53,574 nucleotides of DNA, from assembly GCA_034190245.1 (NCBI GenBank), contig JAXHTJ010000003.1, forward strand, positions 1 through 53,574, written 5' to 3'. The notes under the pieces were generated by a model. It saw nothing but the letters and a program-made list of their open reading frames with translations. It did not search any database and was not told where the DNA came from. This DNA is from Halobacteriota archaeon. Its GTDB lineage: Archaea > Halobacteriota > Syntropharchaeia > DAOWMC01. A program made the position numbers and the translations under genes. Of this stretch, positions 408 through 27,841 are shown one piece after another (the stretch's first letter is position 1; every line of letters starts with the position of its first letter).

Positions 408-1311
408 ATGTCCCGTAGAAAATTAGAAGAAGAAACGGAAAAGCTGATCGACGATTTGAAAAATTCTTCTAGCTTAATCCAGACAGTGAAACATGGAACG
501 AAGAATTCGAGGAATGGATGATGGGTGCTTATGAGGAGGATGTAGAAGAGATAGATTATAATCAGCCACTTGAAGTGGATACAAAGATCCTAAATGACTT
601 TTCTGAGGATGATTTGAGTCATACATCCGTTTTGAAAGATTTTCAGACGTTTTTAAGCTACATTTCAGAGAAAAATGGTATGAAGTTAACCAAGGCAAAT
701 AGTTTTATCATGAGACGTGATCTCTTGGCATTAAACGAAGTTATGAGTGAACCGGAAAAATTGAAGAAGACAGTAAATCAACCCGGTTCTAAGACAATGC
801 GCCTATTTTACAACATGGGTAGAACCTTAAATCTATTCATCGTGAACTCGAAAAACACGTTAAAGATAACTCCAAGAATGGAGATTTTCAATAAGCTTTC
901 GCCGAGGGGGCAATTTGCTATTCTCTTTGATGCCATGTGGAACAAAACGAGATGGCAGAAGTTTCTATCACCGGATAGTGGAGGAAGACCAGAATGGGCA
1001 CAAGAAGAGAGAACGGAAATTGCATACGCATTATCTGATTGTGAAGCAGGGAAAAATATCCATATCGAGATTGGATTAAGGGGCTTTACATGGAAGACGG
1101 CGATGATGAATTAAGCGCATCTCTTGATGCAATGACATTTATATGCAGCGTCTTTGAAGAGAGGATCATTCCAGCACTGAAGTTATTTGGACTCCTTTAT
1201 TTTGAGTATGGGAAGAATAGAGATGAATATTTCATTAGGCACTGTTGGGGAATAGAATGGTTTTCGGTTACAGGCTTTGGGAAGAAGATATTTAAAGCCG
1301 TTGGAATATGA
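408..1311 (+). pseudogene. Disrupted gene for a hypothetical protein resembling the N-terminal domain of pRiA4b ORF-3-associated proteins
   Basis: ATG at 408; frameshift at A5 run 459-463, in-frame TAG 470-472, second frameshift at A5 run 1052-1056 joining ORFs 518-1114 and 1090-1311 into one plausible protein. Confidence 0.6.
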
Positions 1312-1631
1312 AAAAAGAAGAACTAAGAGAGAGAATGGGTAAGAGAAGCAATAAGAGCGAGAAGCTTCTCCTGTATTGAAACATTTGAACAAGGTTTATG
1401 CTTATTGAATTTGCGATGGGGGTGGCAGAAAATGCGAAACATGGATGAGATAATTCAGACGATGGGCAAGGTAGAAGATGAACCCAGAGATAAAAATGAT
1501 TATGATAGATGAGAATACAGATGGAGTAATAGAAAATATTAAACACATCAAAAATAATGCCGAAACCATTAATGGAAATCTTGGTGATAAACAGGTTTTT
1601 TGGATTTGAAATCTAAGTTAGATGTGATAAA

Positions 1632-2231
1632 ATGACCGAAACACAACAGCGTATCCACGTAAGTAGGGTTGAGGTGAACTCAATCGAGTTCGATCATGAG
1701 GTGATGAACATCCCTATCAATCTTGGAGAAGAAGTCAGTTTCGAGTTCATTGTAATAAACTACGGAAACCCCGCACATGTACATCTTTCCACAAGTGAGG
1801 AGATTGGAAAACAGGTGAGCTTTCTCAAGGACAATCCATACGTTAAATACGAGGAGAGGATACCTGTGATACTGAGATTACCCAAGGATGGAGGCTCCCA
1901 GGAGGGGGAGATATTCGTGACAACTGGATACGGCTCGAAGAAGAAGAGCTTCAAGGTTAAGATGCTGATCAAAGAGGAGAAGAAGCATGAAGTAATCGTA
2001 GACAATAAATTGTCAAAAAAGGTGACGGAGAAGCCTAAGAAGAGGGAATTGAGCGGGATTTATAGTCAACAGGAGGTGATGGTAGCGACATTTACGCTAG
2101 TATTGATCCTTCTTTCTCTGTTCCTGACATTTTACGGAGAAGACTCGTATCCTTTTGCAGGATCGTTGCTTGCTTCAATCCTGATAGTATTTTTGGTCCT
2201 GTATAGTTATAAAAGATCAATCAGTTTGTGA
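1632..2231 (+). CDS. Conserved archaeal hypothetical protein (Ig-like N-domain, two C-terminal TM helices)
   Basis: 199-aa ORF 6 bp upstream of pyrG; 'NYGNPAHVHL' and 'TGYGS' segments, C-terminal hydrophobic hairpin. Confidence 0.7.
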   Translation: MTETQQRIHVSRVEVNSIEFDHEVMNIPINLGEEVSFEFIVINYGNPAHVHLSTSEEIGKQVSFLKDNPYVKYEERIPVILRLPKDGGSQEGEIFVTTGYGSKKKSFKVKMLIKEEKKHEVIVDNKLSKKVTEKPKKRELSGIYSQQEVMVATFTLVLILLSLFLTFYGEDSYPFAGSLLASILIVFLVLYSYKRSISL

Positions 2232-4287: not shown

Positions 4288-5175
4288 TTACCTCTTGAAG
4301 ATCTCTGGCATCTTCTCGATCAACTCCTGAGGTGTCCACTTTTCTTTCTTCGATATACCCTTACCGGATTTCCATGGAATCATTCTGTTGACATTTGCTC
4401 CCATGACATGAATCACCTCGCCATTTACTCTTCTTGCTGCTTCTGAGGCCAGGTATACTACAACCGGTGCAATGTTTCCCGGATCCATTGGATCAAAAGC
4501 ACCCTCCTTCGGCTTCGCTTCTGCCATTGCCCCGCCAAACTTCGTTCCCTCTATTGTCATCCTTGTCCTTGCAGCAGGACATACAGCATTGACGGTCACA
4601 CCATATTTTTTCAACTCTTTGGACGTGATAATTGTGAAGGATGCAATTCCAGCTTTTGCAGCTCCGTAATTACCCTGCCCGGGGTTTCCGGTTAGTCCGG
4701 AATCAGAGGTTGTATTTATGACTCGTCCATACACCTTCTTCCCGGCCTTCGATTGTGCCCTCCAGTATTCAGCCGCGTGTCTGATGGTGTTGAATGTGCC
4801 TTTAAGATGCACTCCGACGACGATATCAAACTCATCTTCACTCATGTTGAAGATCATCCTGTCCCTCAGGATACCGGCGTTGTTTACAAGTATATTTAGA
4901 TCGCCGAACTCATCTACCGCTTGTTGAACCATCTCCTTGGCAGCATTGTAGTCTGTAACGCTACTGTAATTTGCTACTGCCTCTCCTCCCGCATCTTTAA
5001 TCTCTTTTACAACCTCACCGGCCGGGGTCGAATCACTCCCTGTTCCATCCCAGCGTCCACCCAGGTCATTGACAACGACCTTTGCACCTTCCTGGGCCAG
5101 AAGTAACGCTTCGCCTCTTCCGATTCCTCGTCCAGCTCCTGTCACTATTGCTACTTTTCCATCTAACAATCCCAT
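4288..5175 (-). CDS. SDR NAD(P)-dependent oxidoreductase (FabG/Hsd4A/MFE-2-like 3-hydroxyacyl-CoA dehydrogenase type)
   Basis: Start at MGLLDGKVAIV; TGAGRGIG, VVVNDLGG, NNAGILRD, YGAAK catalytic motif. Confidence 0.9.
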   Translation of the reverse strand: MGLLDGKVAIVTGAGRGIGRGEALLLAQEGAKVVVNDLGGRWDGTGSDSTPAGEVVKEIKDAGGEAVANYSSVTDYNAAKEMVQQAVDEFGDLNILVNNAGILRDRMIFNMSEDEFDIVVGVHLKGTFNTIRHAAEYWRAQSKAGKKVYGRVINTTSDSGLTGNPGQGNYGAAKAGIASFTIITSKELKKYGVTVNAVCPAARTRMTIEGTKFGGAMAEAKPKEGAFDPMDPGNIAPVVVYLASEAARRVNGEVIHVMGANVNRMIPWKSGKGISKKEKWTPQELIEKMPEIFKR

Positions 5176-5291
5176 TTTAATGCCCTCTTTTAAACATTTA
5201 CCTCTTATTTCACGTAATGTTATATAAAAATAATTGAAGATATCCCTGTAGCATATTGTGCACCAGGAACCATGCACCTTTTAAAAAATAT

Positions 5292-7333: not shown

Positions 7334-8563
7334 CTACAGACTCACTTCATCCCCATTTTCGGGTGCAATAGCATCACATTCGCAGTTCTCTCTGATCCAT
7401 TCAGCAAACCCCTTTGTATCATCCCCGTGAACGGTAAAGACGCATTCCACTCCACTATCGCAGAATTTTGATACGATCGACTTCAGTCCGGCATCATCTG
7501 CATGCGCGGAGAAGTCGTATTGCTCAACCTTCGCTATGATGTTAAGTATCCTTCCATCGACTTCGATGCGATGTTGCTCTATTGCCTTTCTACCATTTGT
7601 ATCTTCCACTTGATATCCTGTGAGCAGAATCTTGCTCATCGGGTCATTGTGAATCTTGCTGATATAGTATAATACCGGCCCACCATTCAGCATTCCGGCC
7701 GTAGTGACAACAATAGATGGCTCTGAAAGAACTCCTGACCTTCTTCTTCTTTTGACGAAACGGACATTATCAAAGGCTTCAGTGAGCTCCTTCTCATCCT
7801 TTAGAAATGATGGACTCTTTTCGATTATTTCAAAGACCTCTATACCCATCCCATCCACGTATGGTGAAAATCCATGTGCATGGAGGATCATCACGATCTC
7901 CTGAGTTCTACCCACAGCAAAACAGGGAATTATTGCATTTCCACCGTTATCAAGTGTCTCGGTAATGGACTCAATAAAAGCCTTCTCCAGCTCAGCTCTA
8001 TTTGGGTGGCTCTTATTATAATATGTGCTCTCGATGATGAGTATATCTGCTGCTGGATAGTTGGGGTCCGCCCCGTTTATCAACCTCGTATCCATCGTGT
8101 TGATATCACCGGTGTAAAGTAGGCTCTTCTTCCCCTCGAGATATATACAGGAGCTACCAGGGATATGGCCCGCATCGTGAAGTCGGACACTATATCCCGA
8201 TGTGAAGAAATCTTCATTATAGGATACAAGGGTGGTCTTCTCCATAAATTTCTTCAGATCTTCTTCAATGAACGGAAGAATGCCCTGCTCCTTTCCAATC
8301 TTGATCGTATCTTTACCCATAAGATAGGAGATGTCCCTTGTTGGAGGAGTCATAAAGACATCCAGCTTAAGATCCATAAGATTCGGTACTATCCCCGAGT
8401 GATCGAGATGAGCATGTGAAACGATGATAGATCTTGGACGGATGCCATTCAGGGGAAATTGTGGTGGATCTGACGGTTTCATCCCGTAATCAAGAAGCAG
8501 ATCATCCACAAGTATGGCTGAGCGCCCTACCTCGCCACATCCTCCCAGAAATCTTATATCGAT
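7334..8563 (-). CDS. MBL-fold beta-CASP ribonuclease (aCPSF2-like)
   Basis: SHAHLDH, DAGHIPGS, YTGD, IESTY, FSAHAD; conserved N-terminus (I)DIRFLGGCGEVGRSA lies upstream of the called GTG and begins at ATC 8563. Confidence 0.9.
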   Translation of the reverse strand: MDIRFLGGCGEVGRSAILVDDLLLDYGMKPSDPPQFPLNGIRPRSIIVSHAHLDHSGIVPNLMDLKLDVFMTPPTRDISYLMGKDTIKIGKEQGILPFIEEDLKKFMEKTTLVSYNEDFFTSGYSVRLHDAGHIPGSSCIYLEGKKSLLYTGDINTMDTRLINGADPNYPAADILIIESTYYNKSHPNRAELEKAFIESITETLDNGGNAIIPCFAVGRTQEIVMILHAHGFSPYVDGMGIEVFEIIEKSPSFLKDEKELTEAFDNVRFVKRRRRSGVLSEPSIVVTTAGMLNGGPVLYYISKIHNDPMSKILLTGYQVEDTNGRKAIEQHRIEVDGRILNIIAKVEQYDFSAHADDAGLKSIVSKFCDSGVECVFTVHGDDTKGFAEWIRENCECDAIAPENGDEVSL

Positions 8564-9410: not shown

Positions 9411-11639
9411 ATGGCCGAATTTATTGCTCACCCCATGATCAAACCGGCAAAGATACAAAAGCGGTCATATCAAATTTCTTTGGCTGAAAAAGCTGCAAAA
9501 AAATCTACAATGATCGTATTACCTACAGGTATGGGGAAGACGGTTATCGCACTCCTTGTGATGGCAGAACGATTGGACAAGGGAAAGATCCTCATGCTCT
9601 CACCCACCAAGCCATTGGTGGAACAGCACGTCGCTTTTCTCAGAAGCGCCTTGAGATTGGACCCTGAAGATATACAGGTCTTCACCGGGGAGATAACGCC
9701 TGATAAGAGGGAGGCGCTCTGGAAGAATGCAAGGGTCATCGTCTCAACACCTCAGGTGATAGAGAACGACCTACTGAACAGGAAGATAGACTTTCGAGAT
9801 GTTGCCCATATAACATTTGATGAGTGTCACAGGGCAGTTGGAAATTACGCCTATGTATACCTGGCGGAGAAGTATTCCGAACAGAGTGAAAATCCTCTAA
9901 CATTGGGAATAACCGCATCACCTGGAAGCGAATCTGATAAAATATCGGAGATCTGCTCCAACCTGCACATCGAATCGGTCGAGATTAGAACAGAGTATGA
10001 TAGTGACGTGTCACCCTATGTTCATGAAAAGAAGATAGAGTGGAGAGTCGTTGAGCTTCCTGAAGAGATCCGGTCTTTGAAGAGGATGATGAGTGAGATT
10101 CTTGTTGATCGGTTGGACAGATTGCACAGACTGGGATTTTTGCCATACAAAAGAAGAGATATATCGATGAGAGAGCTCCTGGCACTCCAGAAGCGTACTC
10201 AGATTCTTCTATCTCAGCAGAAGCACTCCAATACATATAAAGCGGCCTCTATAGAAGCAGAAATTCTTAAACTGAAGCACGCTCTGGATTTGATAGAGAC
10301 TCAGGGAGTTTCCGCCTTACAAAAATATTTTGAGCGCCTTGAAAATGAAGCAAAGTCAAAAGATGGGAGTAAGGCCACCAAAAGACTGCTTTCGGAGCCG
10401 AATATCAAAAAGGCCATCTCTCTACTTGACAGTTGTAAAGAACATCCAAAATTGAATGTTGCAAGACGAATTATAACAGGACAGTTCAAAAATAGTCCCA
10501 ACTCAAGGATAATCGTCTTTGCAAACTTCAGGGACACCGCAGAGATGATCACGAGTTCCCTGAGAGATCTGGATGCAGTAAGGCCCATAAAATTTATCGG
10601 GCAGGCGAGCAAGTACGAGGACAAGGGACTATCTCAGAAGAAGCAGGTAGAGATACTGGATAAGTTCAGAAAGGGCGAGTACAATGTGATGGTTGCAACA
10701 TCAGTCGCAGAAGAGGGGCTGGACATACCTTCCACGGATCTTGTGCTCTTCTATGAGCCTGTACCCTCAGAGATAAGAAACATTCAGCGAAAGGGTCGCA
10801 CGGGAAGGGGGAGATTTGGGAGGGTGATCGTTCTCATTGCGAAGAATACCAAGGATGAAGCCTACTACTGGGCAAGCAAGGGCAAAGAAGAGAAGATGTA
10901 CAGGAAGATGAGGCAACTTCAGAGGAGTGCCGATTACGACACAAAATCCTTCGAAAAACCATCTTTTCAGAAGATGCTCGGAGATAACGATTGCCAGGTT
11001 AAGGTCTTTGCCGACCAGAGAGAGGCGAGATCCGCGGTCGTCAAATCCCTTGACAAGCTCGGTGTTGAGCTTGTTTTAAAGACCCTGGAGGTTGGGGATT
11101 ATGTCTTGAGCGAGAGGGTCTGTGTCGAGCGAAAGAGGGTGGAGGATCTTCTCAGCTCTTTCATGGACAAGAGATACCTCTTCGGACAGCTCTCCGACAT
11201 GAGTAATGAATACGAGAAGCCATTGCTGATAATCGAGGGTGATGGGCTCTATGAGACTCGCAATATTCATCCAAATGCGATCAGAGGGCTGCTCGGTACC
11301 CTTGCCATAGACTTCTGTATGCCTGTGATATTCACAAAGGATGAAGAGGATACTGCAGCCATGTTACAGGTTATAGCCAGACGAGAGCAGGAGAAGAAAC
11401 CCAAAAATTTCAATCCGCACGGTAAAAGATCCTCGCTGAGCCTGAAAGAACAGCAAGAGTACCTGGTATCATCAATATCAAATATCGGCCCCGTAACTGC
11501 CCGTAACCTGCTCACTCGCTTTGGATCTGTCGAAAATGTGATCAAAGCTTCGAAGGAGAGATTGATGGAAGTCGAGAGAGTCGGTCCGATAACTGCTGAT
11601 AAGATAAGGGAGGTTGTTGGATCGGATTATGGTGGGTAA
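9411..11639 (+). CDS. hef: Hef (FANCM/XPF-like) DEAH helicase-ERCC4 nuclease
   Basis: PTGMGKT, DECH, ATSVAEEGLDIP, QRKGRTGR, nuclease ERKRVED, C-terminal HhH; ATG at 9411. Confidence 0.95.
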   Translation: MAEFIAHPMIKPAKIQKRSYQISLAEKAAKKSTMIVLPTGMGKTVIALLVMAERLDKGKILMLSPTKPLVEQHVAFLRSALRLDPEDIQVFTGEITPDKREALWKNARVIVSTPQVIENDLLNRKIDFRDVAHITFDECHRAVGNYAYVYLAEKYSEQSENPLTLGITASPGSESDKISEICSNLHIESVEIRTEYDSDVSPYVHEKKIEWRVVELPEEIRSLKRMMSEILVDRLDRLHRLGFLPYKRRDISMRELLALQKRTQILLSQQKHSNTYKAASIEAEILKLKHALDLIETQGVSALQKYFERLENEAKSKDGSKATKRLLSEPNIKKAISLLDSCKEHPKLNVARRIITGQFKNSPNSRIIVFANFRDTAEMITSSLRDLDAVRPIKFIGQASKYEDKGLSQKKQVEILDKFRKGEYNVMVATSVAEEGLDIPSTDLVLFYEPVPSEIRNIQRKGRTGRGRFGRVIVLIAKNTKDEAYYWASKGKEEKMYRKMRQLQRSADYDTKSFEKPSFQKMLGDNDCQVKVFADQREARSAVVKSLDKLGVELVLKTLEVGDYVLSERVCVERKRVEDLLSSFMDKRYLFGQLSDMSNEYEKPLLIIEGDGLYETRNIHPNAIRGLLGTLAIDFCMPVIFTKDEEDTAAMLQVIARREQEKKPKNFNPHGKRSSLSLKEQQEYLVSSISNIGPVTARNLLTRFGSVENVIKASKERLMEVERVGPITADKIREVVGSDYGG

Positions 11640-11648
11640 ATGAAAACC

Positions 11649-12788
11649 CTAATACCCTCTCCCCACCAGAAAATCTGCAAGTTTTAGAAGGTCACTTCTC
11701 GCCTGTGAATCCGGGAAGATTCCAAGGCAATCTTTCGCCTTCTTCAAAAGATCATTTTCAAACTCTTTTGCATAATCGATGGCCCCACTCTTCCTCAGAA
11801 TCTCGATGGCTACCATCTTCTCTTCTTCTGTATTATTCCTTTTATCAAGGATCTCAAGAAGCAGCTCTCTGTCATATTCTCCTAACTCGCCTAACGCATG
11901 GACGGTGATGACGGTTCTTTTCCCCTCTTCTATGTCTCCACCGACCTCTTTTCCATATGCATCCTCACGAATGTCTATATTTAAGATATCGTCCTGCAGC
12001 TGGAATGCCAGGCTTATATACTCGCAGAACTTTCCAAGGTTATCGACCTCCTCATCTGTCGCACCGCCGATTATGGCAGAAGCTTTACATCCAGCGGCTA
12101 TTAATGATCCTGTCTTGAGTCTCAACGTCTTCAGGACTTCCTCTTCACTCAACTCATTTTTACTGAATATCTTCTCGTAAGAGTCTATGTCTCTACCCTG
12201 CCCCACACAGACATTAAGAACACCAAAAATTAATGTTTCAAAAGCCTTTATCGCCCTCTTCTCTTCAACACCTGAAGAATGTATGTCGTTGGCAGCAATT
12301 AAGGACAGGATCATCAGGGCATCTCCTGAATTGATCGCATGAGAAAGCCCATAAGGTTCTGAAAGATCATCTTTTTCTACCCCCATGCTCTTTAAGACAC
12401 TATCGGCCTCATCCGGGGACTTTGTTATGCTGTTGCAATATGGACAATGAGACATGTCAGATAGAGCATCTCCAAGCGGAGAAAGATGAATTGCAAGCTT
12501 GTTTCTACGCAGATCGCCCCTGTCTTCTATGTCATCGTGGATCAGGCTGAAGTTATGAAACATCTCGATAGAGGCAGCAACCGGTAATGCCTTCTCTATA
12601 TCGCCTCCCACAAGCTCACAGCTCAAGAGACACATGATCGGTCTGAATCTCTTTCCACCCCTCTCAAAAAAATCTACCAACGGAATCTTCAGTTGAGGAA
12701 ACTTACCTACCAGATCCAGGTATCCATAGATCTTCTCCTCAATCTCTTTCGCATATCTTTCCTGGAGCTTGGCAATGATGTTTTCCAT
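11649..12788 (-). CDS. idsA: Short-chain polyprenyl (geranylgeranyl) diphosphate synthase with internal insertion
   Basis: GGKRFRP, FARM HNFSLIHDDIED..RR, GQGRDI, KTG, SARM FQLQDDIL, DIEEGKRT. Confidence 0.9.
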   Translation of the reverse strand: MENIIAKLQERYAKEIEEKIYGYLDLVGKFPQLKIPLVDFFERGGKRFRPIMCLLSCELVGGDIEKALPVAASIEMFHNFSLIHDDIEDRGDLRRNKLAIHLSPLGDALSDMSHCPYCNSITKSPDEADSVLKSMGVEKDDLSEPYGLSHAINSGDALMILSLIAANDIHSSGVEEKRAIKAFETLIFGVLNVCVGQGRDIDSYEKIFSKNELSEEEVLKTLRLKTGSLIAAGCKASAIIGGATDEEVDNLGKFCEYISLAFQLQDDILNIDIREDAYGKEVGGDIEEGKRTVITVHALGELGEYDRELLLEILDKRNNTEEEKMVAIEILRKSGAIDYAKEFENDLLKKAKDCLGIFPDSQARSDLLKLADFLVGRGY

Positions 12789-16828: not shown

Positions 16829-18562
16829 CTATCTCAAAGATATTTTACACTCACCAAGTCTCAATTCATTCATCTTATCTCTTCCTGGCACACCATCCTC
16901 GTCCCAGCCTCTGAACCTGTAATACTCCTCTAGTGAGCGATCGAATTCTCTTTTATCTATGCCGCCCTTCCCAAAGAATCTATCCGGCAAAGTATCATCA
17001 TCTCTTGAAAATCCTTCTTTCAGGTTGAAGATTTTTTCGACGTTCCAAATCCTTTCGCCAACCTTCATTAAATCTTCAGAAGTGAAGTTTACACCCGTGA
17101 TCGCACTCAACATTCCTGCATATTCCTCCCCGGATAGTGCGAAGGAGGAGAACTTACACATCACGAGTGAGTCGACGGCAGCGAGAATATTCTGAAATAT
17201 CTGCACCAGTCCCGCTTTCCCATCAAAACTGAGTCTGTCCACGAGATTTGGCACCCCCAATATTTCCGGTGCAACCATGTAGGCCCTGAGGTGGCATCCA
17301 CCCCGATTCGAGGTTGCGTAAGAGAGAGCCATACCCAATGCCCCCCTCGGATCGTAACCGGGTAGCTCAAGTCCCTTCACATGCATACTTGCAGAAGGAT
17401 CTTCCTTCTCCCGGGAGTGCTCAAGTGATCCTCGCCCCAGAAAACCTCTATTTCCTCTGGAATCTCCAATATCTTCAATAATCCCTGTAAAATCCTCAAT
17501 ATCGCAATCAGTCAGTTCTTTATAGCAGGCGATTGTAGAGCCACAGGAGATTGTGTCCAGACCGTAGTCATTGCAGAGCCGGTTCGCCTCAAATATTAGG
17601 TCTAAATCGGAGTTTTCGCAATCTGGGCCAAATGCCCAGAGAGTTTCATATTCTGGCACTTCAAGGCCATCTTTGGTCTTTCTCTTGCATGCGATAAAGC
17701 AGTTGTAGCAGGATCTTCTCGTAAGTTCATAATTCTTGTTTATATACTCTCCTGATACCTCTTCTGAGAATTCAAACCTGCTCTTTCTAAAGTTCTCCGT
17801 CGGCATGATATTCATATAATTTATCAGATTGACAAGAACCGGAGTTCCATAGGAAACAAGGCCTTTGGAGGTGACGGCATTGACCTTCAAGAGTCGCATG
17901 GCTTCTTCTCGTGATCTAGTGAATAATTCTCTCTCTTTTATTTCTGGCTTACTCTTACTTGATCCCTTTATAACAACTGCCTTCAGGTTTTTAGAGCCCA
18001 TAACCGCTCCAAGCCCACCTCTCCCGCACGCATGAACGTAGTCGCTCATGATATTTGCAATCGGAACCTGTCTCTCTCCGGCACGTCCTATACAGGCAAC
18101 CCTTCCACCATCTTCTGAGAGGATATTCGTCGTATCTTTCGTGTTTTTACCCCATATCTCGGTGGCATCCTTGATCCCTATCCCCTCTTCTGATATGTCC
18201 AGGTAAACCGGTTCATCCGATCTATTCAAAAAAACAAGTGCATCATAACCTGTCCGTTTCAGAGCAACCCCGAAGAACCCACCGGCACTGCAATCGAAGA
18301 TCGTCCCTGTAAGTGGTGATTTGGAGATTACGGCATGCCTACCGGACATCGGTGCCACACCCGTAATTGGCCCGACCGAGAAGATCAGTATGTTATCCTC
18401 GCTCAGAGGATCTGTCTTCGCTTCCAAGTTGTCAGATAGTAACTTGACTCCAAGGCCCCTGCCACCCAAATATGATTTCGCAAGCTCAAAGTTAAGTGGA
18501 ATCTCTTTTATCCTCCTATCAATCAGATCGACGACTGATATCTTCTCATTCCATCCATACAT
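16829..18562 (-). CDS. Tungsten/molybdenum aldehyde:ferredoxin oxidoreductase family protein
   Basis: YLGGRGLG, GRGGLGAVMGSKNLKA, CYNCFIAC, EYET, GLDTIS, YDPRG, NRGGCH. Confidence 0.93.
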   Translation of the reverse strand: MYGWNEKISVVDLIDRRIKEIPLNFELAKSYLGGRGLGVKLLSDNLEAKTDPLSEDNILIFSVGPITGVAPMSGRHAVISKSPLTGTIFDCSAGGFFGVALKRTGYDALVFLNRSDEPVYLDISEEGIGIKDATEIWGKNTKDTTNILSEDGGRVACIGRAGERQVPIANIMSDYVHACGRGGLGAVMGSKNLKAVVIKGSSKSKPEIKERELFTRSREEAMRLLKVNAVTSKGLVSYGTPVLVNLINYMNIMPTENFRKSRFEFSEEVSGEYINKNYELTRRSCYNCFIACKRKTKDGLEVPEYETLWAFGPDCENSDLDLIFEANRLCNDYGLDTISCGSTIACYKELTDCDIEDFTGIIEDIGDSRGNRGFLGRGSLEHSREKEDPSASMHVKGLELPGYDPRGALGMALSYATSNRGGCHLRAYMVAPEILGVPNLVDRLSFDGKAGLVQIFQNILAAVDSLVMCKFSSFALSGEEYAGMLSAITGVNFTSEDLMKVGERIWNVEKIFNLKEGFSRDDDTLPDRFFGKGGIDKREFDRSLEEYYRFRGWDEDGVPGRDKMNELRLGECKISLR

Positions 18563-18672
18563 TTTAAGTAATAATCATCAAATGTAGCAGTATAAATAAT
18601 CACCGAACAAGACCATAAGAAAAGGTTTAACACTTAAGAGATGAATCAATTTAGAGGATGAGATGACACAAA

Positions 18673-19578
18673 ATGACACAAAATATGAAAGATGTCTGTA
18701 TATTGATTCCGACCCTCAACGAAGAACGATCGATAGGGGAAGTAATCGAAGGATTTAAAAAGCTGGGCTTTGACAAAGTGCTTGTAATTGACGGTAATAG
18801 TAGTGATAAAACCAGAGAAATTGCAGAAGACGCAGGTGCTACCGTCGTAATTCAAAAGGGTAAAGGGAAAGGATTGGCAGTCCAGCAAGCATTTGGGATG
18901 ATAGAGGACGATATTGTTGTGATGATAGATGGTGATGGTACTTATCTACCATCCGAAGTGAATAGTTTACTCGAGCCAATATTGCGTGAAGAGGCAGATC
19001 ACGTAATCGGAAACAGGTTTTCAAATTATAGCAAAGGAGCATTCACAAGGTTGAATCTGCTCGGAAATAAGCTACTGAATTGGCTATTCAGTTTTGCTTA
19101 TGGCCTCCATCTGGATGATATCCTCTCAGGATATAGGGCACTTACAAAGGAAGGTATAGAGGAGTTGGAGTTGAACAAAGCCGGTTTTGAGATTGAAGCA
19201 GAAATGGCGATCGAGAGTGTTAAGAAGGAGGTGAGAATCTCAGAAGTCCCCATCACATATGAGCCAAGGATCAAAAGTGCCACAAAACTCAATCCAGTAC
19301 GTGATGGTGTCAGGATAGGTTATACGTTGTACGGGCTTGTGAAGACGCATAATCCTATGTTCTATTTTGGGTTGATTGGTGCATGTTTTATATTTTTAGG
19401 TTTGATAGGTGGTTTTTTTGTAACATTGGACTGGTTTAGGCAGATAGAACGCATTCCATTAACGGTGCTAACAGCTTTATTAATCATCACGGGTGTCCAG
19501 ATATTTGTCTTTGGTCAATTGGGCAATCTTCTCGTTGCTCTACAAAAAGAGATGATACGAGAGTTGAAGAAGAGGTGA
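18673..19578 (+). CDS. aglJ: AglJ-like GT2 glycosyltransferase (S-layer N-glycosylation)
   Basis: [35 protein letters not shown], two C-terminal TM helices. Confidence 0.8.
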
Positions 19579-19946
19579 TGAAGTTGATCGATATGATGGA
19601 TGTAAAATATAAAGATGGACTGGTGCCCGCGATTGCCCAGGACTTTGAGACTGGTGAAATCTTGATGCTTGCTTATATGAATGAAGAGGCCCTGATAAAG
19701 ACTGTCGAGACCGGGGTAGCGCACTATTGGAGCAGGAGCAGAAGCAAGATCTGGAGAAAAGGTGAGACGTCCGGAAATGAGCAGAGTGTTAAAGATATTC
19801 TGGTGGATTGTGATGAAGATGCAGTTCTATTGAAGGTCAAGCAGATCGGTGGAGCCTGCCACACGGGATATAGGTCTTGTTTTTACAGAAGACTTGATGG
19901 AGAGATTGTAGGGGAAAAGTTATTTGATCCAGAAGATGTGTATTGA
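19575..19946 (+). CDS. hisI: Phosphoribosyl-AMP cyclohydrolase
   Basis: [28 protein letters not shown]. Confidence 0.97.
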
Positions 19947-19963
19947 AGAATGAAAAAAAATGC

Positions 19964-20036
19964 AGCCCGGTGGTGTAGTGGTCAATCATGCGAGGCCCTG
20001 GACCTCGCAACCGCGGTTCGAATCCGTGCCGGGCTA
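19964..20036 (+). tRNA. tRNA-Gln (anticodon CTG)
   Basis: Acceptor AGCCCGG/CCGGGCT with archaeal Gln A1-U72, anticodon stem CGAGG/CCTCG, loop CCCTGGA, T-loop TTCGAAT; no encoded CCA. Confidence 0.93.
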
Positions 20037-20090
20037 TTGAGGAGGGGCCTTGCACCCTTCCAAAAATTAAAAAAAAGAGAGTTACCGACT

Positions 20091-20131
20091 TCACAAAACG
20101 AAATAGACTTCAGGCAATAATTAAGGCTCTC
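20091..20131. repeat. att-like repeat copy 1 (diverged copy of the 3' end of the MBL gene at 23343-23384)
   Basis: tcacaaaacgaaatagacttcaggcaataattaaggctctc vs tcacacaacagaaatagacctcaagcaataattaagactctc. Confidence 0.85.
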
Positions 20132-20292
20132 TTCTTACCTGTTTATTCCAATATAATTGTGAATTTTTTTATGATAGACTCTATACACTGAGATGACCTC
20201 TGTTATAGATCGCTGGTTTAATATATGATAACAACGATAGTATGAAGCTACAGTTAAAAATGGTTAGAATCGAAAAAAGAGAGGTGAATAGT
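20132..20292 (+). promoter_or_regulatory. Duplicated upstream/promoter region of NosD-PEF gene 1 (homologous to 21537-21702)
   Basis: Aligns along its length with 21537-21702, including AT-rich TATA-like segment and SD GAGGTGA. Confidence 0.7.
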
Positions 20293-21402
20293 ATGGGATT
20301 TAGTAAGCTTATGGCAATTAGTTTTGTATCGTTGTTTATTCTGTCGATGCTTGTTGGGGTTGTGCCAGTGGCGGCCGTAACAACGACTTATGTGCCGGAT
20401 GATTATGCAAAGATTCAGTGGGCTGTGAATAATGCCTCAGAGTACGACACAATAATTGTAAGAGATGGAAGTTACACTGAAAATGTAGATGTTAACGTGG
20501 CTCATTTGAGTATACTATCTGAGAATGGATCTGCTTCAACCACAGTTCAGGCTGCAAATTCAGGTGATCATGTCTTTTATGTTAATTCAGATTTTGTGAA
20601 TATCTCAGGATTCACAGCGTCCGGGGCGACCAATGCGATCGGAATCTACCTTGACTCTGTAGATCATTGCAACATCTTGGATAATAATGTATTGAACAAC
20701 AACTACGGCATCTACCTGTCTTCTTCAAGCGACAACACACTTACGGGCAACACCGCAAACTCGAACGGCATCTACGGCATCTACCTGTTTTATTCGGACA
20801 GCAACACACTCACGGACAACACTGCAAACTTGAACGACGGATGTGGCATCATGCTTTTTTCTTCAAGCGACAACACACTTACGGGCAACACCGCAAACTT
20901 GAACAATTTTTACGGCATCCACCTGGTTTATTCAAGCGACAACACACTTACGGGAAACACCGCAACTGACAACGACTACGGCATCTACCTGTATGTTTCG
21001 AGCAGCAACACAATATACAACAACTACTTCAGCAACACAAACAACGCCTACGATGACGGAACAAACATCTGGAACACCACGAAAACAGCAGGAACAAACA
21101 TCATTGGTGGACCATTCTTTGGTGGAAATTACTGGCCCGATTATGCTGGCGTTGATATTGACGCAGATGGTCTGGGGGATACATTGCTCCCATATAATTC
21201 CGGTGGGGATATAATAAATGGTGGGGATTTTCACCCATTGGTAGAGGTTTTAACACCCACACCAACACCCACACCAACACCGACGCCAACGCCGACAATT
21301 CCGCCAGATGAAGAGATACCGGAATTCCCAACAATAGCAATCCCCGCAGCAATGATACTTGGCCTTGTCTTCATCATGCAGAGAAGAAGAAAGAACGAGT
21401 GA
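20293..21402 (+). CDS. NosD/right-handed beta-helix surface protein with PEF-CTERM sorting signal (paralog 1)
   Basis: Signal peptide, VPDDYAKIQWAVNNA, repeated GIYL..SS.NTLTGN, GGNYW.DY, (TP)7 linker, IPEFPT + TM + RRRK. Confidence 0.92.
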   Translation: MGFSKLMAISFVSLFILSMLVGVVPVAAVTTTYVPDDYAKIQWAVNNASEYDTIIVRDGSYTENVDVNVAHLSILSENGSASTTVQAANSGDHVFYVNSDFVNISGFTASGATNAIGIYLDSVDHCNILDNNVLNNNYGIYLSSSSDNTLTGNTANSNGIYGIYLFYSDSNTLTDNTANLNDGCGIMLFSSSDNTLTGNTANLNNFYGIHLVYSSDNTLTGNTATDNDYGIYLYVSSSNTIYNNYFSNTNNAYDDGTNIWNTTKTAGTNIIGGPFFGGNYWPDYAGVDIDADGLGDTLLPYNSGGDIINGGDFHPLVEVLTPTPTPTPTPTPTPTIPPDEEIPEFPTIAIPAAMILGLVFIMQRRRKNE

Positions 21403-21413
21403 AAAGTTATGCT

Positions 21414-21452
21414 GGAAGATAGAGATTCTATCTTCCGTATCTATCTTTTTTT
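21414..21452 (+). terminator. Hairpin + T-tract terminator after NosD-PEF gene 1
   Basis: GGAAGATAGA-gat-TCTATCTTCC inverted repeat followed by T7. Confidence 0.65.
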
Positions 21453-21494
21453 AAAAAATACACCAGAATAACGACTGACGCCGACACAGCATAA

Positions 21495-21536
21495 TCACAC
21501 AACAGAAATAGACCTCAAGCAATAATTAAGGCTCTC
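21495..21536. repeat. att-like repeat copy 2
   Basis: 41/42 identical to 23343-23384; reverse strand reads ESLNYCLRSISVV*. Confidence 0.92.
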
Positions 21537-21702
21537 TTCTTACCTGTTTATTCCAATATAATTGTGAATTTTATTTTATGATAGACTCTATATACTGAGA
21601 TGATATGTCTGTTATATATCGATGATTTTATATATTATAACAACAGAAAGTTAATTCAACATAATTAAATCAGTTAGAATCGTAAAAAGAGAGGTGAGTA
21701 GC

Positions 21703-23250
21703 ATGAGTTTTATTTCAAAGAAGTTTTTGTTAGTACTTTTGACTCTACTGGTCTTCTCGATGATATCACCAGTAGCAGCAGGAACAACATGGTTTGTAGA
21801 TGATGATAGTGGGTCGGATTTCACGACTATACAAGATGCAGTTAATGCATCAAGTCCAGGAGATACGATCATCGTAAGAGATGGAACATACAACGAGAAT
21901 GTGGATGTGGGCAAGAGTATAACACTCAAGTCTGAAAATGGGGCAGCTTCGACAACTGTTGTTGCATCTAATCCAGATGATCATGTCTTCGAGGTGACTG
22001 CAGATTATGTGAATATTAGTGGGTTTACGGTGAGAGGACCAACGTTAGGTGCAGGTGTATTCCTTACTACAGTTGAAAACTGCAATATTTCCAATATCGA
22101 CGCAACTAACAACAACGTCGGAATCGCGCTGTTTTCTTCAAGCGACAACACACTTACGGGCAACATGATGTTTGACAATAACTATACCCTTTTTGTTCAT
22201 GGTTTTAGTCTTCCCAATTTTATAAACAAGATAGACACAACAAATAAAGTAGATGGAAAACCGGTTTATTATTGGGTCGATAGGCACGATCAGAAGATAC
22301 CAGACGATGCTGGGTATGTGGGGGTTGTAAATTCCACAAACATAACGGTGGAGGATCTAACATTAGAGGGCAATGGTCAAGGCATTCTGTTTGCATATAC
22401 AAGTAATTCAAAGATAGTGAATGTGAATGTATCGAACAACTTCAACGGCATCGACCTGGCTTCTTCGAGCAACAATATTCTCACTAATAACAATGCATCG
22501 GACAACGAGGGCGGCTTCACCCTGATTTCTTCGAGCAACAACACACTTACGGGCAACACCGCTTCGAACAAAAGGGTTGGAATCGGCCTGGCATATTCAA
22601 GTAACAACACACTTATGGGTAACACTTTAAATTCGAACTACCAGAGCGGCATTGTCTTGTATATTTCAAGCTACAACACACTTACGGGAAACAATGCGGA
22701 AGGCAACGGGATCGGCATCACCTTGGAAAATTTGAGCAACTATAACACACTTACGAGCAACAACGCATCTGGCAACAACCACGGAATCTGGCTACATTCT
22801 TCAAGCGACAACAAACTCACGAACAACACCGCGTCGAGCAACTTATTTGGTATCTACCTGGTGGAACGTTCGAGCGACAACCTCATCTATAACAATTACT
22901 TCGACAACACAAATAACGCCGAGGATGATGGAAACAACATCTGGAACATCACAAAAACACTTGGAACAAACATTATCGGTGGACCATACCTTGGTGGAAA
23001 CTACTGGTCTGATTATGCTGGTGTTGATAATGACACAGATGGCCTGGGGGATACTTTGCTCCCATACAACTCTTCAGGAAATATCATAACTGGTGGGGAC
23101 TATCATCCATTGGTAGAGGTTTTAACACCCACACCAACACCGACAATTCCGCCAGATGAAGAGATACCGGAATTCCCAACAATAGCAATCCCCGCAGCAA
23201 TGATACTTGGTCTTGTATTCATCATGCAGAGAAGAAGAAAGAACGAGTGA
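21703..23250 (+). CDS. NosD/right-handed beta-helix surface protein with PEF-CTERM sorting signal (paralog 2)
   Basis: SD GAGGTGA then ATG 21703; signal peptide, DFTTIQDAVNA, extra NKVDGKPVYYW module, beta-helix repeats, C-tail identical to paralog 1 apart from TP number. Confidence 0.92.
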   Translation: MSFISKKFLLVLLTLLVFSMISPVAAGTTWFVDDDSGSDFTTIQDAVNASSPGDTIIVRDGTYNENVDVGKSITLKSENGAASTTVVASNPDDHVFEVTADYVNISGFTVRGPTLGAGVFLTTVENCNISNIDATNNNVGIALFSSSDNTLTGNMMFDNNYTLFVHGFSLPNFINKIDTTNKVDGKPVYYWVDRHDQKIPDDAGYVGVVNSTNITVEDLTLEGNGQGILFAYTSNSKIVNVNVSNNFNGIDLASSSNNILTNNNASDNEGGFTLISSSNNTLTGNTASNKRVGIGLAYSSNNTLMGNTLNSNYQSGIVLYISSYNTLTGNNAEGNGIGITLENLSNYNTLTSNNASGNNHGIWLHSSSDNKLTNNTASSNLFGIYLVERSSDNLIYNNYFDNTNNAEDDGNNIWNITKTLGTNIIGGPYLGGNYWSDYAGVDNDTDGLGDTLLPYNSSGNIITGGDYHPLVEVLTPTPTPTIPPDEEIPEFPTIAIPAAMILGLVFIMQRRRKNE

Positions 23251-23261
23251 AAAGTTATGCT

Positions 23262-23300
23262 GGAAGATAGAGATTCTATCTTCCGTATCTATCTTTTTTT
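23262..23300 (+). terminator. Hairpin + T-tract terminator after NosD-PEF gene 2
   Basis: Identical to 21414-21452. Confidence 0.65.
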
Positions 23301-23342
23301 AAAAAATACACCAGAATAACGACTGACTCCGACACAGCATAA

Positions 23343-23996
23343 TCACACAACAGAAATAGACCTCAAGCAATAATTAAGACTCTCCTGGATCTTCTCTCTT
23401 CCAACCAGAATGCCCATATGCCCCGGTAGCAGATATTCAACATCCATCTTTGAGATCTTTAATAAAGACTCTCTCAACTGATTCAGATCGCCTCCGTAAA
23501 GATCCCACCTCCCCATGCTGTAGGCAAATGCAGTATCGCCCGAGATCAGGACTTTGCTATCCTCGTCGTATAAACAGACGCTACCCTTTGAGTGGCCGGG
23601 TGTATGGATGACCTTGAGAGCAATGTCTCCCAGATCGAGTGTATCACCCAGGAACTGATCGACTTTCGTCTTCTTAAGTCCAGGAATCGGCATTGATATC
23701 GGAAGTATACTCATCCTGTCAAGAGACCTGGCATCATCTTCGTGCATCATAACTGTGGCACCAGACGACTTTACTATCTTTGAATTTCCGCCGGTGTGAT
23801 CGGGGTGGCCGTGCGTATTCACGATGTATTTGATATCTCCGGGATCAAAACCATCATCTCTAATCTCTTTGAGTAGCCCACCCATGTTTAATCCGATACC
23901 GGGATCAACTATCGTGAGAAAGTCTGCGCCGATCAGATATGCGTTGCTGCTTATCGAACCTCCTTCATACAGATAATACCCATCTGTGACTTTCAT
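23343..23996 (-). CDS. MBL-fold metallo-hydrolase (glyoxalase II-like)
   Basis: THGHPDH, HTPGHS, SGD, PGH; SD GAGGTG before ATG 23996. Confidence 0.9.
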   Translation of the reverse strand: MKVTDGYYLYEGGSISSNAYLIGADFLTIVDPGIGLNMGGLLKEIRDDGFDPGDIKYIVNTHGHPDHTGGNSKIVKSSGATVMMHEDDARSLDRMSILPISMPIPGLKKTKVDQFLGDTLDLGDIALKVIHTPGHSKGSVCLYDEDSKVLISGDTAFAYSMGRWDLYGGDLNQLRESLLKISKMDVEYLLPGHMGILVGREKIQESLNYCLRSISVV

Positions 23997-24114
23997 CAGG
24001 CACCTCGCTCCAATTGCTTCAATTGCTCCAATTTTTAGTTTATTAAGAGAAGTCATATATCTTTTTGTTTGAAGACCAAACACCGTTAAAACCGATAGAT
24101 ATAAGTTCAATTGA

Positions 24115-26098
<1,984 letters not shown>

Positions 26099-26102
<4 letters not shown>

Positions 26103-26689
26103 TATCGCTTATTAGAGGAAATCTGGAACTGAAAACCGAGGAATTTATCATTGTGGACGTAAGTGGAATCGGATTTCAGTTGAATATCCCCCTATCTACA
26201 TATGCCTGCTTGCCCGATCTCGGGGAAGAGGTGAAGCTCTACACCCACTTGCAGATGAGGGAAGACTCAATAAAGCTTTATGGTTTTTCTAGTATGAAGG
26301 AGAGGGAGCTATTTGAGCTTCTGATCAACATATCCGGAGTCGGACCCAAGATAGCGTTAGCGGTCCTTTCCGATATATCTGCAACCGAGCTTCAGAAAGC
26401 CATTGGTCAGGAGGACCTTGTAAAGTTGACGGGCATTAGCGGGATTGGCAAAAAGACCGCACAGAGACTGATTCTGGAGCTGAAGGAGAAGATAGGGGTT
26501 CTGGGAATTGAGGCAGAAGAGGTTGCTGGTGCCATGGGCAATGAACTCTTGAATGATGCTGTTTCTGCTTTGATATCACTGGGTTACGGCCAGAATGAAG
26601 CAAAAAAGAGTGTGAGTAAAGCGTCAGAATCTTTAAAAGGTGACTATACTTTAGAAGATCTTGTAAAGAAGACCCTTACATTCCTTTGA
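26099..26689 (+). CDS. ruvA: Holliday junction branch-migration DNA-binding protein RuvA
   Basis: MISLIRG..VDVSGIGF, LYTHLQMRED..LYGF, ISGVGPKIAL, GIGKKTAQRLILELKEK, DAVSALISLGY. Confidence 0.95.
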
Positions 26690-26764
26690 TTCCTGCGGGT
26701 TCTTTATCTGTTTTTGATGAGTTGGAAGGAAAAGATTATTAGTTTTTAAGAGGATTTATCTGCG

Positions 26765-27841
26765 ATGGATACGGAAAGTAAGATTGAGCTAGCAGCAAGA
26801 CCACCCACAAGGGAGATTGTGACATATGATGATCTGAGAAATCTCTTTGAGACAGAAGAGCACCCAAAGCATTACATCGGTTATGAGGTCTCAGGTATGA
26901 TTCATCTCGGTTCCGGGTATATGGCTGCCCGAAAGATCAAAGATCTTCTGAAGGCCGGTGTTAAGCCGACCATCTTCTTTGCGGATTATCACGCATGGAT
27001 AAACGGGAAGTTGGGTGGAGATCTGGACCTGATAAGAAACGTTGCAAAGAGGTACTACCAGAAGGCATTTGAATCTCTTGGGCTCTCGGATGTTGATTAT
27101 GTCTTTGCATCCGACCTTTACGAGGATCTGAATTACTGGACAGAGGCCATAAATATCGCAAACAATGTCACCATAAAAAGAGTGATGAGGACTCTTGCCA
27201 TAATGGGGAGAAGAGAGGCAGAGGTGAATCAAGTTTCTCAACTCATGTACACCCCGATGCAGGTTGCAGACATCTTCCATATGGACGTTCAGATTGCCCA
27301 TTCTGGAATGGATCAGAGAAAGGCGCACATGGTGGCAAGAGAAGTGGCCCCGAAGATAGAGAGGGAGAAACCGGTGGCACTACATCATGGCCTTCTGATG
27401 GGGCTCACATCTCCAAGAAGGGCCGGTTATGAGGAGGATGAGCTCCTGGATCTTGAGATCTCCTCGAAGATGAGTAAATCTTTACCCAATACCTGTATAT
27501 TCATCCACGACTCCCCTGATACAATCAGAGAGAAGATGAAGAAGGCTCACTGCCCTCCAAAAGAGATAGTGAACAATCCGGTTCTGGAACACTGCAAATA
27601 CGTAGTCTTCAATGAGATGGACACGCTGGAGATAGAAAGAGACGCGAAGTATGGCGGAGATCTGAATATCAAGAGTTTTGAGGAGCTTGAGAAGATCTAC
27701 CAGAGTGGCGAGTTGCATCCCCTCGATTTGAAGAACGCAACTGCAAAGTGCTTGATCGAGATATTAGAGCCATCAAGAGCCTACTTTGAGTCCCATCCCG
27801 AAGTACTGGATGTATTCAAAGAAGTGCAGATTTCAAGGTAA
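26765..27841 (+). CDS. tyrS: Tyrosine--tRNA ligase (archaeal type)
   Basis: YIGYEVSG.IHLG, ADYHAWIN, YTPMQVADI, GMDQRKAH, KMSKS, LHPLDLK. Confidence 0.93.
   Translation: MDTESKIELAARPPTREIVTYDDLRNLFETEEHPKHYIGYEVSGMIHLGSGYMAARKIKDLLKAGVKPTIFFADYHAWINGKLGGDLDLIRNVAKRYYQKAFESLGLSDVDYVFASDLYEDLNYWTEAINIANNVTIKRVMRTLAIMGRREAEVNQVSQLMYTPMQVADIFHMDVQIAHSGMDQRKAHMVAREVAPKIEREKPVALHHGLLMGLTSPRRAGYEEDELLDLEISSKMSKSLPNTCIFIHDSPDTIREKMKKAHCPPKEIVNNPVLEHCKYVVFNEMDTLEIERDAKYGGDLNIKSFEELEKIYQSGELHPLDLKNATAKCLIEILEPSRAYFESHPEVLDVFKEVQISR

Follow-up and report, generated by a model that had tools for sequence, protein, structure and literature searches.

Two NosD-like surface-protein genes stand between three copies of a hydrolase gene end in a Halobacteriota genome

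In a metagenome-assembled genome of a Halobacteriota archaeon (2,613,469 bases in 331 contigs, 91% complete), two genes for NosD-like surface proteins, g1 and g2, stand in tandem between three direct copies of a ~42-nt core, denoted as R, which corresponds to the 3' end of an adjacent metallo-β-lactamase (MBL)-fold hydrolase gene. The array lies in contig C221 (JAXHTJ010000003.1), of which the whole stretch analyzed, 53,574 nt, is referred to as the window. Its layout is R-S1-R-S2-R, where S1 and S2 are the sequences between the cores, and the MBL gene is restored, so that the att-element-att anatomy described in an earlier sequence-only reading was reproduced; the GC content of the units is that of their surroundings. 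To explain the array, we favor one insertion by recombination inside R, followed by unequal crossing-over and gene conversion, a reading to which we give about an even chance of being right.

The whole genome was searched with a degenerate 32-mer covering the 32-nt centre of the core, allowing up to three mismatches. Three matches were obtained, all at the window locus, and a reversed control pattern gave none, so the three copies claimed beforehand (R1, 20091-20131; R2, 21495-21536; R3, 23343-23384) are real and R occurs at this locus only. R3 is the functional 3' end of the MBL gene (23343-23996, minus strand, 217 aa from the ATG at 23996), which closes with ESLNYCLRSISVV and the stop codon, and the minus-strand open reading frame (ORF) at 23343-24110 matched Pfam Lactamase_B (PF00753) at 1.3e-40. 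In three other genomes of the same family, from three genera (G001, G002 and G003), the MBL orthologues show 69-75% amino acid identity and align to residue 215-217 of 217, and near-identical DNA is present at the stop codon in all three. When the inter-unit region was compared with the DNA of 40 relatives, core-like sequence appeared at two MBL orthologue ends only. Judging from these alignments, R is the native end of the MBL gene and R1 and R2 are ectopic copies, since the orthologous genes share R as their own end. The ORF end, the Lactamase_B match and the orthologues thus agree with the earlier claim that the third copy is the real end of the gene. R2, the internal copy, differs from R3 by one substitution. 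R1 is a decayed copy of the last 13 codons and the stop (TCACAAAAC-GAAATAGACtTCAgGCAATAATTAAGGCTCTC) and differs from R2 by three substitutions and a 1-nt deletion, which destroys its frame; R1 and R2 are annotated without a strand. Beyond the core, TTCTTACC follows both R1 and R2, whereas CTGGATC leads into the gene after R3, and both units therefore leave the MBL sequence at the same base, as had been noted in the earlier reading.

Each R-to-R interval holds one complete, self-contained NosD-like PEF-CTERM surface-protein gene, and g1 and g2 are the only long ORFs within the units. The gene g1 (20293-21402, plus strand) encodes a 369-aa NosD-like beta-helix protein with a Thr-Pro linker and a PEF-CTERM anchor, and g2 (21703-23250, plus strand) a 515-aa NosD-like beta-helix PEF-CTERM protein; both are predicted to be secreted. 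The NosD family (PF05048) was matched at 7.8e-44 by g1 and 2.1e-59 by g2, both also matched Beta_helix (PF13229), and the PEF-CTERM model TIGR03024 scored 25.8 and 25.0 bits, respectively, against a cut-off of 23. With the model for true NosD (TIGR04247), the scores were 104.3 and 150.7 bits, below the cut-off of 300. Because only the beta-helix fold family is matched, the products are, by these models, NosD-like surface proteins and not NosD. Their Thr-Pro linkers differ in length by 24 nt (8 codons), that of g1 (21252-21296) being the longer and that of g2 (23124-23144) the shorter.

Around each gene, the units carry the same series of parts. The left arm of unit 1 (20132-20198, plus strand, 67 nt) is ~95% identical to that of unit 2 (21537-21607, plus strand) and is found at no other locus. 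It is followed on the plus strand by the promoter and 5' untranslated region (5'UTR), at 20199-20292 for g1, with a TATA-like TTTAATATA and GGTGA before the ATG, and at 21608-21702 for g2, where it is likewise a module of the gene family. The terminators, each a hairpin and T-run on the plus strand, are at 21413-21452 (g1) and 23261-23300 (g2), with the 11-bp hairpin and T-run themselves at 21413-21437 and 23261-23285; the g1 terminator folds at -9.3 kcal/mol (z -4.6). Spacers at 21453-21494 and 23301-23342, which are unit-specific and carry no strand, lead to the next R. With its own TATA-like promoter, 5'UTR and terminator, each unit is predicted to be an independently transcribed gene. Complete units with a homologous promoter and Shine-Dalgarno sequence, a gene and a terminator had been claimed, and each of these parts is present, although the promoter and the terminator are not specific to the units.

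The two units (20091-21536 and 21495-23384) align head-to-tail throughout with an identical junction of R and TTCTTACC, so that, as in tandem duplication, homologous units share one identical junction. Identity along the alignment is 95% for R and the next 67 nt, 64-72% for the promoter and 5'UTR, 50-70% for the N-terminal and 77-87% for the C-terminal coding region, and 97-100% for the last ~300 nt, which comprise the Thr-Pro linker, the PEF-CTERM segment, the terminator, the spacer and R; 21403-21536 and 23251-23384 are 98.5% identical over 134 nt. The 67-nt arm and the spacer are common to both units and occur in no other paralogue of the genome. The identical junction after R1 and R2, together with an arm and a spacer found nowhere else, indicates common descent of the two units, and one insertion followed by tandem duplication, which the sequence-only reading had offered as one of its two options, fits these shared unit-specific arms best. 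A simple duplication would show similar divergence along the whole unit, and this was not seen, the ends being 95-100% and the N-terminal coding regions 50-70% identical, so later conversion or exchange must be assumed. An in-register similarity between the arm after R and the MBL gene (11 of the first 20 nt, 38 of 100 overall) may be due to chance.

Exchange with dispersed paralogues is indicated by the promoter of g1. The segment 20199-20236 is identical at 38/38 positions to C286:8686-8723, upstream of a large subtilase/NosD-like surface-protein gene, but only 86% identical to unit 2, and 25 nt of this element are identical at 25/25 positions to C18:150-174. The 38-nt element, a CTGTTATAGATCGCTGGTTTAATATATGATAACAAC-like sequence seen at g1, on C286 and partly on C18, may from its distribution be a shared regulatory site for surface-protein genes. 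The PEF tail with its terminator hairpin also recurs: G002, a genome of another genus, has it behind a PEF-CTERM gene, and C289 has it in a remnant. As far as these matches can tell, the promoter and terminator are modules common to the gene family, and g1 and g2 are mosaics. NosD-like paralogues (tblastn, >80 bits) are on 12 other contigs, some in tandem arrays (C307, C157 and C1), and the N-terminal half of g2 is 56-63% identical in amino acids to paralogues on C324, C157 and C1 and ~40% to g1. In G002, a PEF-CTERM gene end with the terminator hairpin and ~40 nt more is present twice (L006:970-1078 and L011:1465-1573, 79% over 110 nt); the second copy is not preceded by a gene and represents the relic of a 3' end. 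Matches to the terminator region in G032 and G039 were discarded as coincidences inside coding sequence.

On the left, the array borders on a tRNA-Gln(CTG) gene (19964-20036, plus strand, predicted by ARAGORN). The sequence left of R1 was compared with the spacer and scored 16 (shuffles: mean 13.3, sd 2.3), a value that 15% of 2000 shuffles reached (p=0.15); homology on this side was dropped, and the stop codon thus marks the start of the repeat. An A-rich run, which is an oligo-T run on the minus strand, can be read at 20062-20076, ~14 nt past R1. No other minus-strand gene terminates there, and the run would be a relic terminator of the original MBL gene end.

To see how regularly NosD-like genes are flanked by gene ends, we used the g1/g2 alignment as query against one genome per prokaryote species, which yielded 249 relatives. 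The best 80 loci, mostly from Methanosarcinales, anaerobic methanotrophic archaea (ANME) and related archaea, were kept and screened for short direct repeats outside the NosD-like coding sequence, and ten were inspected by eye. The architecture was present at one of these 80 other loci, L140, and is therefore not a regular property of NosD-like genes. L140 (JAIWAP010000029.1, genome G042) belongs to another archaeal clade. There, a 145-nt repeat (99-100% identical; 5048-5192 and 8168-8312), made up of the last ~46 codons of thiC and 6 nt past its stop, flanks a 3-kb insert that is convergent with thiC and holds a NosD/LTD/dockerin gene and a gene for a 233-aa membrane protein. The repeat has these two occurrences only in G042, and no recombinase was found among the ORFs between them. 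L140 resembles the window in that a gene for a NosD-like secreted protein is convergent with a housekeeping gene whose 3' end is repeated on both sides, the outer edge being 6 nt from the stop. It differs in the length of the repeat (145 versus 42 nt), in having one unit with two genes, and in encoding a dockerin/LTD instead of a PEF-CTERM protein.

A further difference is that empty sites are documented for L140 and none for the window locus. Eight relatives of L140 with ThiC 88-96% identical were fetched, and in four of them thiC runs directly into the L140 left flank; one has, convergent with thiC, a NosD-like gene but lacks the second gene, and three have other neighbors downstream of thiC. 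One relative, G057, carries the L140 cassette (85-88% identical in nucleotides) on another contig, behind porA. The cassette is followed there by ~300 nt from the 3' end of thiC and, after these, by 55 nt copied from a segment of porA; G057 has its complete thiC elsewhere. The loci used in this thiC/porA comparison were L169-L172 and L187:2785-7203. These sequences show that insertion of a NosD-like gene with duplication of the end of a convergent gene does happen, and the junction of thiC and porA fragments in G057 is by its arrangement of the tandem-duplication or circle type. Gene-end pieces of differing length (145 and ~300 nt) and this type of junction argue for homologous or illegitimate recombination and not for a fixed att site, and an outer repeat edge at the stop codon follows simply from where the two arrangements cease to be alike. 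Among the papers listed by literature searches, none had a title or abstract describing gene-end-flanked NosD-like cassettes in archaea.

Other candidates from the screen were rejected. At L117 of Methanococcoides vulcani, a 60-nt repeat (4720-4779 and 9894-9953) surrounds two NosD-like genes, but it is a dispersed element: a 701-nt query from L117 had 28 matches in its genome (G041), most of them to the 60-mer, and the ~60-nt element, beginning with TCCAACCTCTCCCTCACATGAGCATTGAG, was matched in 11 of 12 other Methanococcoides genomes (G043-G054). One copy of it overlaps the 3' end of a Cas1 gene. Repeats at L126, L090, L087, L116, L064, L068 and L094 were accounted for by paralogous coding sequence, by dispersed motifs between genes or by plain tandem arrays.

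A purely local origin would also agree with the NosD-like tandem arrays that are common in this genome (C307, C157 and C1) and are found in the Methanosarcinales and ANME records L064, L068 and L094 as well. In such a scheme, a NosD-like gene convergent with the MBL gene would have been triplicated with a segment reaching 42 nt into the latter, and the first unit then deleted except for its R; the G057 junction of thiC and porA, of the tandem-duplication type and with subsequent truncation, offers a parallel. We consider this course of events unlikely. It needs three events, the deletion must have ended exactly at the stop-codon edge of R with no spacer remnant left of R1, and the minus-strand oligo-T run beyond R1 fits a former real gene end better. 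For the leftmost core, an insertion is the best origin in view of the lack of homology left of R1, the oligo-T run and the empty sites of L140, which upholds the earlier remark that duplication alone does not explain this copy.

Because the genome is assembled from a metagenome into 331 contigs and the units share 134-300 nt of near-identical sequence, we considered that g1 and g2 might be alternative strain alleles of one site, joined in tandem by the assembler. Assembled contigs from four runs of one study were examined, and the locus was present in three (X1, X2 and X3). A unitig of X3 (record 19) covers 21501-21890 with no differences, which verifies the junction of R2, arm 2 and g2, and X1 (record 1) verifies the junction of the tRNA flank, R1 and arm 1; these are distinct real sequences. 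Across the variant sites, R1 and R3 are identical over no more than ~12 nt in a row, so a k-mer graph could not have created R2 from them. The unitig depths of g1, g2 and MBL were 53/44/59 in X1, 41/32/38 in X2 and 12.6/7.9/8.5 in X3, so that in all three runs both genes are close to the single-copy flank and not at half of it; contig depth being a weak measure, this is a weak argument that both units belong to one genome and are not two collapsed alleles. No public contig among the matches listed bridges g1, the spacer, R2 and g2, which speaks for the artefact, yet taken with the verified junctions we regard it as very improbable. Among the contig matches listed for the four runs, none joins the tRNA side directly to the MBL gene as an empty site would, although contigs cannot show rare forms. 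Where contigs show an extra 24 nt at 23123 or 23139, the g1 copy has probably been aligned to g2. The contig joints listed have short sides (21-47 nt), and most of them contain unmatched letters at the joint or lie within gene-internal 66-69-nt repeats; they were not used.

Elsewhere in the genome, too, short direct repeats were seen that copy sequence from gene termini or close to them, and including the window there are five such loci with repeats of 35-45 nt (C79, C263, C288, C296 and the window). On C296, a 36-nt repeat (860-895 and 2028-2063, 33/36 identical), unique there, surrounds one NosD-like gene (1069-1980, minus strand), and no neighboring gene end could be assigned to it; an R-like stretch beside it was taken as chance, its score of 22 being reached in 13 of 1007 windows of 300 nt sampled from the genome. 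On C79, a 44-nt repeat (116-159 and 4321-4364, 43/44 identical) encloses an insert of 4.2 kb, in which there are one ORF of 1092 aa and two small ones. Its right copy lies 18 nt inside the gene 4303-4965, and an alternative start (MPYEEAES...) precedes its left copy. From its sequence, the insertion looks like one that replaced the 5' end of the gene. The repeats on C263 (45 nt, 17974-18018 and 18916-18960) and C288 (35 nt, 18094-18128 and 19030-19064) include the start codon region and surround one gene each, of 313 aa and 235 aa. In the Methanophagales locus L111, direct repeats of 123 nt and 73 nt (10031-10218 and 12344-12665) are at the 5' end of a 417-aa gene, with an insert of 2.3 kb and two to three small ORFs between them.

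The anatomy of the window, which can be written as attL-unit-attI-unit-attR with the gene restored, could also result from repeated integration of integrase-less elements into the 3' end of the MBL gene, with a recombinase supplied in trans, as in cis-mobilizable elements (CIMEs) or, more loosely, integrons. We hold this to be possible, at a probability clearly below even. The repeat has its edge at the stop codon, which is also seen in elements integrating into the 3' ends of genes, and the genome has two intact tyrosine recombinase genes and one serine recombinase. NosD-like adhesion genes are reported on viral contigs from alkane-oxidizing enrichments and consortia (PMC13452462). The explanation keeps some weight because conserved arms enclose divergent cargo and because of the 35-45-nt gene-terminus repeats around the inserted genes on C79, C263, C288 and C296. 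Listing the recombinases of the genome, as had been proposed, placed all of them on other contigs: PF00589 had four matches, of which those on C141 (320 aa) and C80 (423 aa) are intact and those on C237 and C35 are fragments, and the serine recombinase is on C291. No recombinase gene was found in or near the units among the ORFs at 17000-27000, and no copy of R that might serve as attP stands beside any recombinase gene in the genome searched with the R pattern. The same pattern had 0 matches in viral contigs, where the g1/g2 alignment likewise found 0 relatives. Folded as single-stranded DNA, the spacer with R (21440-21560) gave z scores of 0.24 on the plus and -0.68 on the minus strand, no better than shuffles, and is therefore not attC-like.

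Compared with known systems, the window shares with CIMEs and their tandem accretion the direct repeats (attL, attR and an internal att) that carry the host gene 3' end around units lacking integration and transfer genes, the intact host gene, and the internal att copies shared by tandem units. In contrast to CIMEs, neither the 91%-complete genome nor the viral contigs nor the 40 relatives yielded a cognate element or integrase using the same site. CIMEs are decayed conjugative elements, whereas the units are single genes of a resident family, 1.4-1.8 kb in size; moreover, the host is an archaeon, and recombination at R is putative. The likeness to integron cassettes consists of single-gene units stacked at one position with a short recurring site between them. 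However, the array has no IntI-type recombinase gene next to it, no attI and no attC-like hairpin, the recurring site being a copy of a coding gene end, and each unit has its own predicted promoter and terminator where integrons have mostly promoterless cassettes under a common promoter. The earlier suggestion of integron-like cassettes found no support in these features, in the restriction of R to this locus or in the single instance among 80 NosD-like loci. The differing gene-end fragments of the L140 clade (145 versus ~300 nt) also speak against a specific site. The junction expected of a circularized unit (terminator, spacer, R and promoter) is the same sequence as the internal R2 junction, so the read test proposed earlier cannot tell circles from the array.

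It is rather doubtful, in our estimate, that NosD-like adhesin genes travel in general as small cassettes lacking a recombinase, each taking along the gene end of its last neighbor as a portable homology arm or att site. If this were true, the cassettes could re-enter beside the same gene in other cells, pile up in tandem and provide a variable stock of surface proteins, and the window array, the thiC cassette and the copy at the porA site would be traces of one process.

Returning to one insertion with later duplication, we propose the following steps. A unit of left arm, promoter, NosD-like PEF-CTERM gene, terminator, spacer and R would have entered once by recombination inside R, with incoming DNA that already carried a copy of the MBL end. 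The donor may have been a circularized piece, or a fragment from a strain in which the surface-protein gene stood beside the MBL gene, and its entry may have been through one homologous cross-over or through illegitimate recombination facilitated by homology. A repeat that stops at the stop codon is expected where donor and recipient are alike only through a conserved gene. As the anatomy suggests, the old gene end would have been stranded as R1 beside tRNA-Gln, where it has since decayed with the oligo-T run still 3' of it, and R3 would have become the equivalent new end of the MBL gene. Next, copies of R would have crossed over unequally and so doubled the unit. Finally, gene conversion would have kept the unit ends 95-100% alike, as the gene bodies became mosaics shared with dispersed paralogues, a step for which the identities above give partial evidence. 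A dedicated recombinase would not be needed, and the array would have come about incidentally, through general recombination in a surface-protein family that evolves fast.

Campbell-type integration and homology-facilitated illegitimate recombination are known from bacteria and laboratory constructs. Together with unequal crossing-over, they share with the window a homologous segment on both sides of the insert, an outer repeat edge where the likeness of donor and recipient stops, and ends that are homogenized around mosaic gene bodies; end points that vary between events are seen in the thiC analogue (145 versus ~300 nt). They differ in that they are known from other organisms and that the donor arrangement for the window was not found in the three related genomes.

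Several observations weigh against this proposal. No NosD-like gene lies beside, or downstream of, the MBL orthologue in any of G001-G003. In these genomes, the order of glycosyltransferase, hisI and tRNA-Gln is kept, but the sequence 3' of the tRNA is different in each and the region preceding gyrB differs from the window in all three; because synteny is not conserved, an empty-site allele cannot be read from them. For the window locus itself there is no empty-site or copy-number evidence from the related genomes or from metagenome contigs, which, searched with the MBL protein, gave four loci at 27-37% identity and none closer. The gene bodies are far more divergent than the non-coding ends, unlike a simple recent duplication, and the donor for the divergent parts is not in the assembled genome, where the best paralogue is 54-63% identical in amino acids. 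Conserved ends with variable middles also fit mobile cassettes with fixed recombination arms, and the narrow size of the other 35-45-nt gene-terminus repeats, which surround one to three genes, could hint at a specific mechanism. As an analogy, L140 belongs to another clade and involves another target gene. Taken all together, the array most likely arose by one insertion with local duplication and not by a new cassette-swapping machine.

As for the function of the proteins, the PEF-CTERM signal is assigned to archaeosortase C (PMC5244752), and the exosortase/archaeosortase family (PF09721) has three matches in the genome; from these features, the g1 and g2 products are probably anchored to the cell surface by an archaeosortase. 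For NosD-like proteins without the NosD copper motif, a role in adhesion within alkane-oxidizing consortia has been proposed (PMC13452462). The methyl/alkyl-coenzyme M reductase (MCR) alpha subunit family had seven matches on seven contigs of the genome (G000), six of them above the Pfam cut-off, which suggests that the host is probably an alkane- or methane-metabolizing archaeon; by these family matches, several MCR genes are present in this one genome. Surface beta-helix proteins of syntrophic alkane- and methane-oxidizing archaea are thought to mediate adhesion in consortia.

The window and its thiC analogue suggest that whole surface-protein genes can enter at the 3' end of a housekeeping gene and leave that gene undamaged. 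Such an insertion leaves a second copy of the gene end, from which tandem expansion can then start. As a caution, att-like repeats alone are no proof of a mobile element. If a specific mechanism were at work, this would add a new way in which archaeal genes move; otherwise, the locus is a worked example of how ordinary recombination builds arrays of surface-protein genes.

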